DNA from: Escherichia phage vB_EcoM_SA35RD
DNA: 64,000 nucleotides
Reading direction: 5' to 3' (one strand)
Sequence record: OL960577.1
The position numbers and the translations under genes are program-made. Positions 4,578-7,995 of this stretch are shown one piece after another (position 1 is the first letter of the stretch; every line of letters begins with the position of its first letter). Under the pieces are notes generated by a model. The model made no database searches and was not told the origin of the DNA. It worked only from the letters and a program-made list of their open reading frames with translations.

Positions 4578-5534
4578 TTATTTGAAAGGTTTTACCATAT
4601 GAAAGTTTTGTTTGAAACGCTTGACGTAATCGTCGTGTCCTAAGCTTTGGTACATACTTACTACTTTGCTATAATTTTCCCAAGCGAACTCACGGAACCA
4701 TCCTGATGTGATTGATGTACAGACCTTTTCAAGGGCCATCATAAAACTATCACGTGGATGGATTTTAAAGTCGTTAGGAATCTGAGAACGTTCTAATGCT
4801 AGTACACATGATTCTTCATATACACCGGCCAATTTGACCATTTCTGGTAATGATTCGAACTTCTCGCGTGAGGTCATGACTTCAGAACCATCTTTCATGT
4901 AAAATGTATAAGCCGGACGGTCTGTTAGTGCAATAGCTTCGTGAATAGTATCATGGTCATATGTATAGATGTCATCTTTAAAGAACGCACTTTTAGAAGT
5001 GTCAAGAACAGGGTGAGCATAGTTCAAGGTTTCTTTCTGGCGTTTCAGCATAATTTCAGTAAGTTCATCGTTCAGTTTAACACCTTTACCACGAAGATAC
5101 TGAATATGGTTCATAGTCTTTAAAAAGAATGGATTATTTTTCTTGAAACGATGAGACATCTTAATTGCAAGACATATCTCAGGAGTTGCCCAGTAAAACC
5201 CGTTCAAACGGTCTTTAGTCAAATTTTTCTTGGCGTATTTTAAAAGGTCATAAGAAGACGTGAAATCTTCAGGAGTGAGTTCACCGACTAATTCACGGAC
5301 ACTAGTGATTGCCGGAACAATATATGCTTCAAAATGAGTTTCGCGTCCATTATGGAAGCATTTGAAAACTTGGACATCAGGGTTATCTTGGTGAACATAT
5401 ACACCCATCATTTGATTTTTGAATGCATTCCAAGAACCTTGGTCCGCAATAAAGTCCCAATCACTATTTTTAATAGCGCTAGAATCAATAAGACCGTGAT
5501 AGTGAAGTGCACGAGAACCAATAACTAACATCAT
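4578..5534 (-). CDS. hypothetical protein, possible nucleotidyltransferase fold
   Basis: 318 aa; N-terminal LVIGSRALHYHG...DWDF resembles the GS...DxD motif of Pol-beta-type nucleotidyltransferases (ANT-like); fold call is tentative. Confidence 0.65.
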   Translation of the reverse strand: MMLVIGSRALHYHGLIDSSAIKNSDWDFIADQGSWNAFKNQMMGVYVHQDNPDVQVFKCFHNGRETHFEAYIVPAITSVRELVGELTPEDFTSSYDLLKYAKKNLTKDRLNGFYWATPEICLAIKMSHRFKKNNPFFLKTMNHIQYLRGKGVKLNDELTEIMLKRQKETLNYAHPVLDTSKSAFFKDDIYTYDHDTIHEAIALTDRPAYTFYMKDGSEVMTSREKFESLPEMVKLAGVYEESCVLALERSQIPNDFKIHPRDSFMMALEKVCTSITSGWFREFAWENYSKVVSMYQSLGHDDYVKRFKQNFHMVKPFK

Positions 5535-5562: not shown

Positions 5563-5802
5563 TTAAATTTCACGACATGCGATATTATATTCATCCCAGA
5601 GGTCATCATGTGAAGCCTCTACCAATGGAACGATTGTACCGTTTATGTCTTCATTATAAGGGCAAATTGTACAGTGCGCATCTTCGAATCGGATGCCTTT
5701 GTGTTCAGATTTTTTATAACGCATATCGAATATCTTTGCAAACTTTTCACGAGTAATGGTTTTACCAACCACTTTGGTTCCGATACTTTCGTAATAAATC
5801 AT
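5563..5802 (-). CDS. hypothetical small protein
   Basis: Start at ATG 5802 (MIYYES), which has SD GGAG; ends ...NIACREI; early promoter at 5831..5860. Confidence 0.5.
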   Translation of the reverse strand: MIYYESIGTKVVGKTITREKFAKIFDMRYKKSEHKGIRFEDAHCTICPYNEDINGTIVPLVEASHDDLWDEYNIACREI

Positions 5803-5830
5803 TGTGGACTCCATTTGTTTTGATAGGACT

Positions 5831-5860
5831 ACTATAACATAGCCCTATCTTGTTGTAAAC
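5831..5860 (-). promoter_or_regulatory. early promoter cassette (PeSL-like)
   Basis: -35 GTTTAC, 18 bp, -10 TATAGT; inverted repeat GATAGGGCT/AGTCCTATC around the -10. Confidence 0.5.
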
Positions 5861-5864
5861 TGTT

Positions 5865-6062
5865 TTAGCAAGAATAACTAGATGATACCCAGCCTTGAAC
5901 AGTGATACTATTGTGGGATAATGAGATCGCGTCCTGGAGATTCAGACCTGCGTTATCTTCAATCCATAATGTAACTTCTTCGCGTTCTTCTGTTGCAATT
6001 TGGAACAGGTTTTCCAGAGCAGCTACTGCCGTACGTACAGCACAATCTAATTCACGAGACAT
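5865..6062 (-). CDS. small protein, GWVSSS..C-tail family
   Basis: 65 aa; C-terminus QGWVSSSYSC; SD AAGGAA. Confidence 0.55.
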   Translation of the reverse strand: MSRELDCAVRTAVAALENLFQIATEEREEVTLWIEDNAGLNLQDAISLSHNSITVQGWVSSSYSC

Positions 6063-6071
6063 ATTGTTTCC

Positions 6072-6344
6072 TTAGCAAGTGTGAGAAGATGCGACCCAAC
6101 CACCAGTTTCGAGGCTCAGGTTGTAGTCGTATTGGTAAACGTCAGCCCATTCAGCATAGCCATTTTTTGTACAACGTTCAAGATCGGCTTTAAGATGTCC
6201 GGGTGAATGATAGGTTCCACCCATACCGTAAGCTGGATACAAGTCGAATGTTGTGTTTTGTTTATCAGCAATTTCTTTGGCAGCCTCAATAGCTGCATAG
6301 ATTTTTGCTACAGCTTCAGCCAGTTCGGTTTGTTCTTTAGACAT
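6072..6344 (-). CDS. small protein, GWVSSS..C-tail family
   Basis: 90 aa; C-terminus GGWVASSHTC; shares KEIAD...YG.GGTYH core with the next paralog. Confidence 0.6.
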   Translation of the reverse strand: MSKEQTELAEAVAKIYAAIEAAKEIADKQNTTFDLYPAYGMGGTYHSPGHLKADLERCTKNGYAEWADVYQYDYNLSLETGGWVASSHTC

Positions 6345-6353
6345 AATGATTCC

Positions 6354-6659
6354 TTAGCACAACGCAGAAGACGAAACCCAAGCACCTTCAGTAATAACGT
6401 AACCATTACCTTCACGCTTAACATCGCCACCATTATTTTCAATTTCATCTTTCATCCACTGGGATACGATTTCACCCTTAGGATAATAAGTACGACCGCT
6501 ACCATAATCACCTACAGAAAATGATACGGCATATTGGTCTGCGATCTTTGTTGCTTCTTCTTCGATACGTTCAGCTTGATTCAGAAGTTTATAAATTGCA
6601 TCTGAAGCGGATTTGGCATTATTAAACTCTGGTACTTTAATTTCAATAATCTTACTCAT
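6354..6659 (-). CDS. small protein, GWVSSS..C-tail family
   Basis: 101 aa; C-terminus GAWVSSSALC; ATG overlaps the upstream stop (ATGA). Confidence 0.6.
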   Translation of the reverse strand: MSKIIEIKVPEFNNAKSASDAIYKLLNQAERIEEEATKIADQYAVSFSVGDYGSGRTYYPKGEIVSQWMKDEIENNGGDVKREGNGYVITEGAWVSSSALC

Positions 6660-7015
6660 TTTCTACATTCCTTAATAAAGTTTTCGATTGTTTCATTTTC
6701 ACGTCTAGCTAGGAGTTCATTATAACTAATCATTTGAGAAGCGTAAACCTTTTTATTTTTCTTGTTATGGTTTATAAAATCGTAGTAAAAATAGACTACA
6801 GTACAAAATGATGCGATGGATGCAAAGGCTTGGGTATACCGTAAGTCCTGCCATTGGTCTGTGAATCCACCAGTGTTCCCTATAAATCCTAACACAACGC
6901 CGTCAATAAGAAATCCAACTAATCCAAAGGCAAATCCCATGCCAATACTCATAATAAAAATTAGAATGTTCTCACCAAGAGAAGGCCATACGGTTAAGAG
7001 TTGAGGCTTTTGCAT
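6656..7015 (-). CDS. small membrane protein, FIxECR-tail family
   Basis: 119 aa; hydrophobic helices; C-terminus IENFIKECRK. Confidence 0.6.
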   Translation of the reverse strand: MQKPQLLTVWPSLGENILIFIMSIGMGFAFGLVGFLIDGVVLGFIGNTGGFTDQWQDLRYTQAFASIASFCTVVYFYYDFINHNKKNKKVYASQMISYNELLARRENETIENFIKECRK

Positions 7016-7973: not shown

Positions 7974-7995
7974 AAAAGGAGGACCGGGGTCCTCC
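7974..7995 (-). terminator. rho-independent terminator
   Basis: GGAGGAC-CGGG-GTCCTCC hairpin followed by TTTT on the minus strand, just after the stop of the 8004..8597 gene. Confidence 0.6.

Follow-up and report, generated by a model that had tools for sequence, protein, structure and literature searches.

Three adjacent genes in a T4-like phage encode small proteins that end in nearly the same residues, and we asked what such a shared C-terminal tail might be for. The window analyzed here is a 64,000-nt stretch of Escherichia phage vB_EcoM_SA35RD (OL960577.1); its DNA is that of a Mosigvirus, in keeping with the T4-like origin that an initial annotation had assumed. As that annotation described, the three genes and their Cys-ended tails follow one another directly, and they lie exactly where it placed them, in tandem on the minus strand with TAA after each open reading frame. 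The 101-aa protein (6354..6659, minus strand; phrog_899, E=1.4e-22) has the string YGSGRTYYP in its body and ends in GAWVSSSALC, where the tail AWVSSSALC is encoded at 6357-6383 and followed by the stop codon. The 90-aa protein (6072..6344, minus strand; phrog_899) has a YGMGGTYH body and ends in GGWVASSHTC (tail GWVASSHTC at 6075-6101). The 65-aa protein (5865..6062, minus strand; phrog_4882, E=7.7e-37) ends in QGWVSSSYSC (tail GWVSSSYSC at 5868-5894). The same three coding sequences are annotated in phages APCEc01 and JK36, each 99.4% identical to the window, and homologs of the 101-aa protein occur in 394 phage records. When all six frames of the window were divided into stop-to-stop segments of at least 30 aa, 23 of the 933 segments ended in Cys, and only the three genes carried the ending W-[VIL]-[SA]-S-S-x-x-C.

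To analyze the conservation of the tail, we compared its codons within and beyond the window. The synonymous differences noted initially are present: Val is encoded by GTA, GTC or GTT in the three genes, and the next position reads TCA, GCA or TCG. Beyond the window, the C-terminal motif W-x-[S/A/P]-S-S-x(0-3)-C defines at least 684 protein clusters at 50% identity. The form W.[SAP]SS..C stands at the C-terminus of 127 of 137 further distant representatives, with Cys as the last residue in 128 of the 137; within the 127 in-register representatives, W, S(-4) and C are each found in 127/127 and S(-3) in 125/127. Across 118 distinct tail DNA sequences, S(-4) is encoded by TCT, AGT, TCA, TCC, AGC and TCG, S(-3) likewise uses all six Ser codons from the TCN and AGY boxes, and Cys is encoded by TGC (68) or TGT (50). 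All three stop codons, TAA, TGA and TAG, are in use among 201 tail open reading frames. The motif is not entirely rigid. The distance from the SS pair to Cys is 0, 2 or 3 residues, a few members have a residue beyond the Cys, and members of 72-81 aa hold two copies, so that the motif is also internal in some proteins.

These data bear on the simplest alternative, that the tail is a by-product of a nucleotide signal at gene junctions, such as a stop codon with a ribosome-binding site or another DNA or RNA element. At two of the three junctions in the window we did observe TGC-TAA-GGA-A, in which the stop precedes a Shine-Dalgarno-like sequence serving the next gene. However, the use of all six Ser codons, of both TGC and TGT and of three stops, as well as the internal motif copies, speaks against a junction signal, and the codon variety in the 118 tail DNAs refutes it as the cause of the tail; we give this alternative practically no probability. 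Since both Cys codons and all six Ser codons are in use, selection acts on the protein, as judged from these sequences. The initial claim of protein-level conservation thus survives the very test proposed to overturn it.

We then compared the bodies that carry the tail. By BLASTP, the 90-aa and 101-aa proteins matched with E=2e-4, whereas the similarity between the 65-aa and 90-aa proteins was confined to the last 23 residues. After removal of the tails, the 90-aa and 101-aa families were homologous by hhalign (97%), and the 65-aa family had no detectable relation to either (13.5% and 0.4%). The description of the genes as a trio of paralogs therefore holds for two of them, and by sequence the 65-aa gene has essentially nothing but the tail in common with the other two. 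Similarly, a core IAD...F...YG-x-G-x-TY is common to the 90-aa and 101-aa proteins, but the literal string KEIAD...YG.GGTYH, first reported for both, occurs in the 90-aa protein only. On a larger scale, about 39 groups of bodies could be distinguished among 201 unique tail proteins.

The AlphaFold model of the 101-aa protein (pLDDT 91) combines a long helix (residues 15-43) with a small sheet. Its tail is mostly ordered, with W94-S96 in a strand and 97-100 in a helical turn (mean pLDDT 88 for residues 91-100), and packs on the body beside the conserved YG-x-G-x-TY loop. The profile searches and structure prediction suggested for these proteins returned no significant match to a solved structure and no significant fold match. 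In Pfam (E<=0.1) we obtained nothing but sub-threshold chance matches, with no HEPN domain among them; NCBIfam gave no match for any of the three, and PADLOC a single weak match (E=0.01) to one protein. The family had not been recognized at the outset, and what we can add is its membership in PHROGs: the tail proteins and their neighbor described below belong to phrog_899, phrog_4882 and phrog_2141 (E 1e-19 to 1e-150), all of "unknown function". In the databases and literature searched we found no record of the shared tail or of a link between the small-protein families and phrog_2141, and a full-text literature search gave nothing relevant on the tail families, DUF7275 or DUF7277. Judged by their sequences, the tail proteins seem to form a large undescribed phage protein family, set by the Cys-ended motif.

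All three tail genes lie 0.3-1.1 kb upstream of, and on the same strand as, a gene for a 318-aa nucleotidyltransferase of Pol-beta fold (4578..5534, minus strand; Pfam DUF7277 and DUF7275; phrog_2141). Viewed from the transferase, 74 of 80 phage loci have 1-6 tail open reading frames on the same strand in the 3 kb upstream of it. The same-strand frames in that interval number 949 over the 80 loci, and 139 match the strict and 193 the broad motif; among the remaining 4208 frames of these loci, only 2 and 4 do. Viewed from the tail, the transferase lies 0.2-2.3 kb downstream in 33 of 34 loci, and the sole exception is a contig that stops about 490 nt past the tail gene, so that tails without the transferase were not found among these 34 loci other than on this truncated contig. 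On metagenome contigs of 1.5-3.3 kb that encode three distant tail proteins, a DUF7277/DUF7275 gene follows each of them within 11-15 nt. The pair occupies different positions within Straboviridae, namely the lysozyme/tRNA region in Mosigvirus, a site beside nrdD in 44RR2.8t and one between genes 41 and 61 in Berthold, and also occurs in Phapecoctavirus, Otagovirus and contigs of about 355-371 kb. The transferase without tails was seen in one lineage encountered four times (L050, L051, L054, L075), in locus L027, and in distant homologs from Gordonia, Streptomyces, Vibrio and a roseophage. Taken together, tail genes are nearly always found just upstream of one nucleotidyltransferase gene, and the two travel as one unit.

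This near-obligate linkage, which the initial annotation had not noticed, indirectly supports a role of the tail in recognition or modification, and so lends some weight to the modification part of an early proposal that the tail is a targeting, modification or packaging signal. It also bears on the reading that the tail acts independently of the transferase, for instance by forming a metal or redox site, by imitating the C-terminus of a host protein, or by signaling degradation or localization to host machinery, with the linkage reflecting only co-regulation or co-inheritance. The packing of the modeled tail by the YG-x-G-x-TY loop would allow a small-ligand site, and the terminal Cys could plausibly bind a metal. 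However, the linkage is maintained in phage families that are unrelated and at differing genome positions, often at a distance of 11-15 nt, the tail is kept on bodies that lack the YG loop, and pure co-inheritance would not last over such evolutionary distance. We consider this reading quite improbable.

For the packaging part of the early proposal we found nothing in favor. T4 internal proteins carry an N-terminal capsid-targeting sequence (MKTYQEFIAE-like) that is cut by the prohead protease. The N-termini of the three small proteins, MSRELD, MSKEQT and MSKIIE, are unlike this sequence, and we rejected an identity as T4-type internal proteins, that is, capsid cargo. The only true open reading frame of the capsid-targeting kind (MKTYQEFINEA) that we saw belongs to an unrelated locus, L027.

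We also examined the other genes and sites of the locus. Between the tail genes and the transferase lies a gene for a Cys-containing protein of 83 aa (5563..5814, minus strand; phrog_3723; no Pfam match). Only 12 of 80 loci, every one from an enterobacterial T4-like phage, have it next to the transferase on the upstream side, and it is probably a lineage-specific insert, not a part of the core module. Upstream membrane proteins were likewise rejected as core components, being lineage-specific (10/80 and 3/80 loci). A consensus scan placed a promoter-like site, TTTACA-17-TATAGT with a TG element (5831..5859, minus strand), between the 65-aa and 83-aa genes; such sites in total did not exceed shuffle expectation. 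This site could perhaps drive the 83-aa gene and the transferase apart from the tail genes.

The transferase itself looks active. Its structural matches are the O-adenylyltransferases ANT(2'') and LnuA and the MenT toxins. Among 44 homologs that are 47-74% identical to the protein of the window, G6 and S7 of motif I (hG[GS]) are invariant, as are D25 and D27 of the D-x-D motif and the third carboxylate E69, which lies in a predicted strand (64-73); motif I is also present in the distant tail-less homologs. The Pfam scan (E<=0.1) returned DUF7275 and DUF7277 only, and not DUF1814, though a K125-x-x-H128-R segment may be the counterpart of DUF1814 motif III or IV. The gene occurs in 732 sequenced genomes of phages, T4-like, rV5-like, Otagovirus and jumbo phages among them, but is nearly absent from bacteria, with 5 MAG contigs among 185,579 species genomes. 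No fusion of tail and transferase was found among 120 transferase homologs. In an alignment of tail-linked with tail-less homologs, C272 was also present in some tail-less ones, and C243 was missing from some tail-linked ones. The position of the transferase in the window and in Gordonia phage Toniann, and its site near RNA ligase 2 in DSS3_PM1, had suggested a connection with tRNA genes. As a general rule we rejected it, because only 5 of 43 loci have tRNAs at a distance of 6 kb or less; gene context therefore does not speak for a MenT-like toxicity through tRNA 3' ends.

Conservation within the enzyme is uneven. DUF7275 is far more conserved than the catalytic N-terminal domain, invariant columns lie mostly in residues 125-281, and a very conserved extra helical region of about 150 residues falls outside the part matched by known transferases. 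This pattern would fit small proteins that serve as adaptors or specificity subunits, whose unmodified tail docks on the C-terminal DUF7275 domain while the bodies bring the transferase to host proteins or RNAs. An invariant tail on variable bodies and many partners per enzyme are also in line with docking. However, the invariant Ser-Ser and Cys resemble a reactive site more than a docking peptide, and many bodies are merely 40-60 residues long, leaving little capacity for binding a target. We regard the adaptor role as improbable.

The main rival is an antitoxin-like role, in which the small proteins would be stoichiometric inhibitors or regulators of a MenT-like enzyme that acts on RNA, for example on tRNA 3' ends, and the tail would plug or remodel the active site without being modified. 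The resemblance to the MenAT1/AbiE-type (DUF1814) systems is clear in outline: there too, a Pol-beta-fold enzyme with N-terminal GS and DxD motifs is preceded on the same strand by an immediately adjacent small gene, in the case of MenT1 that of a 68-aa antitoxin which blocks its active sites, so that gene order and size class are alike (PMC7450476, PMC10435456). All the small proteins have a long N-terminal helix, and the active element of MenA1 is an N-terminal helix (PMC11375011); the two-motif members of 72-81 aa could bridge two protomers, as MenA1 does. The differences are nevertheless considerable. The phage enzyme falls in DUF7277/DUF7275 without DUF1814 membership, has the additional conserved helical region, and belongs to phages, with hardly any occurrence in the genomes of bacteria. 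MenT1 (T39) and MenT3 (S78) have a Ser/Thr phospho-acceptor two positions ahead of the first catalytic Asp, but in the phage enzyme the corresponding position, two ahead of D25, is neither invariant nor nearly so and shows no conserved Ser/Thr. Its 1-6 partners have a common C-terminal tag, which has not been described for MenA antitoxins, and the small proteins show no sequence link to MenA1, neither by Pfam match nor by a significant match of their profile to a solved structure. A single enzyme can have as many as six different tail proteins beside it, and enzymes lacking tail genes were seen but no tail genes lacking the enzyme, which is opposite to toxin-antitoxin logic; an addiction rationale is not apparent in these phages. 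The presence of 1-6 tail genes per transferase and of enzymes without tails fits clients better than inhibitors, and we judge the antitoxin-like role unlikely, though the least unlikely of the alternatives.

Another alternative involves chemistry within the tail itself: the transferase might activate a tail Ser, which would become dehydroalanine and be attacked by the terminal Cys, giving a lanthionine- or AviCys-like C-terminal ring as in ribosomally made modified peptides. A C-terminal Ser-x-x-Cys does resemble the AviCys-forming ends of epidermin-type peptides, and several putative precursors beside one enzyme would suit such a pathway. However, the Ser-Cys spacing is not fixed (0, 2 or 3), the motif is also internal, and the bodies are predicted to be well-folded small proteins, not leader peptides. 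Among eight neighboring proteins scanned there was no dehydratase, cyclase, flavin/LanD-type decarboxylase, protease or exporter. This alternative appears very improbable.

The reading that we tentatively favor, at a probability somewhat short of even, is that the tail is a handle by which diverse small proteins engage the transferase, most likely as Ser or Cys acceptors. The extreme conservation of the tag on diverging or unrelated bodies counts for such engagement. In this mechanism, small cytoplasmic, phage-specific proteins with differing bodies and the common tag W-x-(S/A/P)-S-S-x(0-3)-C, whose genes form arrays of 1-6 and immediately precede that of one MenT/ANT-like nucleotidyltransferase, would present the tag to the active site of the enzyme. 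There the hydroxyl of one of the invariant serines, or the cysteine thiol, would accept a nucleotidyl or phosphoryl group that an NTP donates, and several client proteins would be modified by one enzyme early in infection. The sequences and models show the tag, its conservation as protein, the linkage of the genes and the fold and catalytic motifs of the transferase; from these we infer that the two partners interact physically, that the modification is covalent, and that it may serve host takeover or counter-defence. In its fullest form, the proposal is a new phage protein-tagging system, in which the transferase nucleotidylates the C-terminal Trp-Ser-Ser-Ser-Cys tag, primes a nucleotide chain on it or otherwise converts it, so that one enzyme arms or switches several early effectors; this is possible, but on balance somewhat doubtful.

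Precedents exist for such a reaction. The closest is the type VII HepT/MntA system, in which the minimal nucleotidyltransferase MntA, a small Pol-beta-fold enzyme, adenylylates HepT, encoded by the adjacent gene (PMC7641770, PMC11586414). Unlike the phage partners, which have no HEPN match and whose C-terminus conserves Trp, two Ser and Cys, HepT is a HEPN RNase modified on Tyr, and the 318-residue phage enzyme structurally resembles MenT and ANT, with no MntA among the structure matches listed. MenT1, for its part, puts phosphate on its own active-site Thr39 (PMC11375011). ANT(2'') and LnuA match the phage enzyme in fold, but they act on small-molecule antibiotics, are not accompanied by tagged proteins, and show no HMM-detectable sequence similarity to it. 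Some observations count against a tail acceptor. The closest structural relatives use tRNA 3' ends or small molecules and not proteins (PMC7450476), the ordered tail in the 101-aa model is unlike an expected free acceptor peptide, and the varying SS-Cys spacing, with a residue after Cys in a few members, does not favor the handle reading either. In addition, the tail-less homologs show that enzymes of this family have some role that does not depend on tails.

Should the tag prove to be an acceptor or handle for the transferase, it would represent a new enzyme-plus-tag system in large phages, with tail genes adjoining the transferase in most relatives sampled. The system offers a first way into the function of several large phage families, phrog_899, phrog_4882, phrog_2141, DUF7275 and DUF7277, and it raises the testable question of what role a MenT-like nucleotidyltransferase plays in a phage rather than in a bacterial toxin-antitoxin locus. 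The eight-residue tag also provides a search key for small phage effectors that ordinary homology searches miss.

Three adjacent ORFs on the minus strand of the window, at exactly the coordinates proposed in the initial annotation, encode small Cys-ended proteins, each followed by TAA: a 65-aa protein (5865-6062; QGWVSSSYSC; phrog_4882), a 90-aa protein (6072-6344; GGWVASSHTC; phrog_899) and a 101-aa protein (6354-6659; GAWVSSSALC; phrog_899). The synonymous codon differences described for these tails were also found, with GTA, GTC and GTT at Val and TCA, GCA and TCG one position on. A six-frame scan of the whole window gave 933 stop-to-stop segments with a minimum length of 30 aa; 23 terminated in Cys, and the ending W-[VIL]-[SA]-S-S-x-x-C occurred only in the three tail ORFs. 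Spacers of 9 nt, TAAGGAAACAAT and TAAGGAATCATT, lie between the tail genes, each followed by the next ATG, and the 101-aa gene shares an ATGA start/stop overlap (6656-6659) with the gene of a 119-aa predicted membrane protein (6656-7015). These spacers and the overlap suggest that the tail genes and the upstream membrane-protein gene form one translationally coupled block; membrane-protein genes at this place are lineage-specific.

The region lies between lysozyme/nudix genes on one side and a tRNA cluster on the other, and shares 99.4% identity with Escherichia phage APCEc01 and Shigella phage JK36 (Mosigvirus, Straboviridae, T4-like), where the three ORFs are annotated as hypothetical proteins. 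Both phrogs are of unknown function in PHROGs, and Pfam, NCBIfam and PADLOC scans of the three small proteins gave no meaningful match. By consensus match only, we noticed a site resembling a T4-style early promoter (TTTACA-17-TATAGT, with TG; 5831-5859, minus strand) between the 65-aa gene and an 83-aa gene, and a GC-rich hairpin with a T-run (7978-7995) upstream of a 205-aa gene; counts of such sites in the window were not above shuffle expectation.

The three proteins had been regarded as paralogs, which holds for two of them. By BLASTP, similarity between the 90-aa and 101-aa proteins covers the tail and a YG-x-G-x-TY core (E=2e-4), and the match of the 65-aa protein is confined to its last 23 residues. 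When the tails were cut off and family alignments were compared with hhalign, the 90-aa-type and 101-aa-type families were homologous (probability 97%), whereas the 65-aa family had no detectable relationship to the other two (13.5% and 0.4%). Across related loci, 201 unique tail-tagged proteins of 41-172 aa fell into about 39 body groups at E<=1e-10. The tail-less comparisons and these body groups indicate that the tail is a module common to very diverged or unrelated bodies.

The tail extends much further than initially supposed. Relatives of the 101-aa protein were found by tblastn in 394 phage records, with hosts including Escherichia, Aeromonas, Enterobacter, Klebsiella, Serratia, Yersinia and Acinetobacter, and when 1.84 billion cluster representatives were searched with a tail-protein profile, 684 matched at E<=1e-3. 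Among the 137 representatives not previously collected, Cys was the last residue in 128, and the last eight residues read W-x-[S/A/P]-S-S-x-x-C in 127, with W, Ser(-4) and Cys each invariant and Ser(-3) present in 125 of these; eight others had one additional residue beyond Cys. We then considered the possibility that the tail is a by-product of a nucleotide signal at gene junctions. In 118 distinct tail DNA sequences, all six Ser codons were used at both Ser(-4) and Ser(-3), with AGY codons 30 and 39 times, respectively, and Cys was encoded by TGC in 68 and TGT in 50; the 201 tail ORFs ended in TAA, TGA or TAG. Since six Ser codons, two Cys codons and three stops are used, a junction signal, the result by which the initial annotation would have been refuted, is excluded, and conservation acts at the protein level, as the initial annotation had argued. 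Thus, a short invariant Ser-rich, Cys-ended tag is carried by many different small proteins and is under protein-level selection.

Variant tails in related loci include W-x-P-S-S-C and W-x-S-S-S-C, with Cys right after the serines, and W-x-S-S-S-x-x-x-C. A 72-81-aa family carries an internal DW-x-SSSC-YGEG besides a terminal W-x-x-SSC, and one protein has three tandem motif copies; the motif is present more than once in L003:4215-4433, L004:3734-3952, L005:3529-3873 and P0054, the last of which ends DRWESSSEGWESSSEGWVSSSSQC. Such repeated and internal copies show that the motif need not be terminal to work, or at any rate to be retained. A 144-145-aa family ends in GWISSSICW, with Trp beyond Cys (L042, L047, L048, L069 and L080; e.g., L047:4652-5086), and a few phrog_899-like proteins end in C-S, C-N or C-R. 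Given these extended endings, the free carboxylate of Cys is not strictly required. RiPP-like ring formation in the tail is highly improbable. The RB69 ortholog of the 101-aa protein (P0002, RB69ORF139c) and the mar005P1 ortholog of the 90-aa protein (P0048, mar005P1_00006) are truncated to 71 and 75 aa and have lost the tail, both departing part-way from the full-length sequence as expected of a frameshift. Because of these truncations, individual tail paralogs seem dispensable or redundant.

Further downstream, in the same orientation as the trio, is a 318-aa gene (4578-5534) whose product has the Pfam domains DUF7277 and DUF7275. In the first three distant phages inspected, Aeromonas 44RR2.8t, Acinetobacter ABPW7 (Phapecoctavirus) and Klebsiella KP13-26 (Stephanstirmvirinae), 2-5 tail-tagged genes stand immediately upstream of the DUF7277/DUF7275 gene. 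We found 80 viral contigs via the 318-aa protein. Of 949 same-strand ORFs within 3 kb upstream of the gene, 139 ended in the strict and 193 in the broad tail motif; among the remaining ORFs, 4208 on both strands together, the counts were 2 and 4. Of the 80 loci, 74 had one or more tail genes when one ORF with a non-ATG start is counted; with the locus of that ORF scored as zero, 23 loci had one tail gene, 21 had two, 6 had three, 6 had four, 16 had five and 1 had six. The six tail-less loci comprise one lineage (L050, L051, L054 and L075), a contig with a mere 243 nt of upstream sequence, and the T4-like phage L027. Conversely, 33 of 34 viral loci found via the tail-protein profile had a 318-aa homolog 0.2-2.3 kb downstream, the exception being a contig of 3.6 kb with about 490 nt beyond the tail gene. 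In three metagenome contigs of 1.5-3.3 kb encoding distant tail proteins, the DUF7277/DUF7275 gene follows after 11-15 nt.

The pair recurs in different contexts: the lysozyme/tRNA region in the window, beside nrdD in 44RR2.8t, between genes 41 and 61 in Acinetobacter phage Berthold, and also in Otagovirus phiPsa374 and contigs of about 355-371 kb. In 185,579 bacterial and archaeal species genomes, the 318-aa family occurred on only 5 MAG contigs, all five with tail ORFs upstream. Taken together, adjacency of tag genes to one conserved same-strand gene is near-obligate; the two very probably work together, and a tail function independent of the enzyme is very unlikely.

An 83-aa gene (5563-5814, minus strand; phrog_3723) directly upstream of the 318-aa gene is present at 12 of 80 loci, all enterobacterial T4-like, and is a lineage-specific insert between tails and transferase; its product contains additional Cys and His residues besides a C-x-x-C-like motif, HCTIC. 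L027 has the nucleotidyltransferase, but tail genes are absent within 6 kb of it, and an ORF about 2.5 kb upstream of it (L027:3176-3484) begins MKTYQEFINEA, which we take to resemble the T4 internal-protein capsid-targeting sequence. In tail-less L054, the transferase gene (5788-6714) is split into 55- and 209-aa ORFs, an apparent pseudogene.

Across 44 aligned homologs, which share 47-74% identity with the window protein, G6-S7, D25-x-D27 and E69 are invariant, a sequence hallmark of Pol-beta-type nucleotidyltransferases, and many more invariant positions lie within residues 125-281. The AlphaFold model is confident (pLDDT 92.7), and in an independent search its top Foldseek matches were a nucleotidyltransferase-like protein (5uvd) and MenT1, probability 1.00 each. 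The product is therefore apparently an active nucleotidyltransferase, of a family found in 732 phage records. Distant shorter homologs (248-301 aa; Gordonia, Streptomyces, Vibrio and a roseophage) lack adjacent tail genes. One in roseophage DSS3_PM1 (L128, 765-4391) lies three genes downstream of a metallophosphoesterase and RNA ligase 2, and one in Gordonia phage Toniann (L127, 3309-7511) lies 1.2 kb from a tRNA cluster; this proximity to RNA-related genes hints at an RNA-end function of the wider family, with tRNAs within 6 kb in only 5 of 43 loci.

How would tag and enzyme interact? We tentatively prefer, at somewhat less than even confidence, a model in which the small proteins are clients: a tag serine hydroxyl or the cysteine would accept a nucleotidyl or phosphoryl group from the enzyme. 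This is favoured because one enzyme serves 1-6 different tagged proteins, because in the loci sampled the enzyme exists without tags and tags were never seen without the enzyme, and because the fold family includes O-nucleotidyltransferases. Moreover, the minimal nucleotidyltransferase MntA modifies its neighbour-encoded HepT (PMC7641770, PMC11586414), and MenT1 can move phosphate onto a Thr of its own active site (PMC11375011). Against it, RNA or small molecules are the substrates of the nearest structural relatives, and the tail is predicted to be ordered, not floppy: the confident AlphaFold model of the 101-aa protein (pLDDT 91) has a long helix (residues 15-43) and a small sheet, and in the tail a strand (W94-S96) is followed by a helical turn (residues 97-100), with lower certainty at the last residue. 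The main rival, that the small proteins inhibit an RNA-directed enzyme as the antitoxin MenA1 does MenT1, shares gene order, partner size and top structural match with MenA1/MenT1 (PMC7450476, PMC10435456), and we consider it unlikely. An adaptor role is less well supported and more improbable still.

In its possible mode of action, a Pol-beta-fold transferase with a small neighbour-encoded partner, the phage system resembles MenAT1 and HepT/MntA, but it belongs to neither family. The enzyme does not match the DUF1814 model in a Pfam scan, unlike MenAT1; its alignments have no conserved Ser/Thr at the MenT auto-phosphorylation position (site after PMC11375011); its partners lack the HEPN domain of HepT; and the system is essentially confined to phage genomes. 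The consulted papers on MenAT and HepT/MntA make no mention of a C-terminal tag shared by multiple partners, and targeted full-text searches found nothing similar to this tag-plus-nucleotidyltransferase system. A nucleotidyltransferase with small partner proteins is an already-known general type, and there is a sizeable, though less than even, chance of a genuinely new protein-tagging chemistry. The tail is the signature of a widespread and uncharacterised module of phages, in which tagged small proteins accompany a MenT/ANT-like nucleotidyltransferase.
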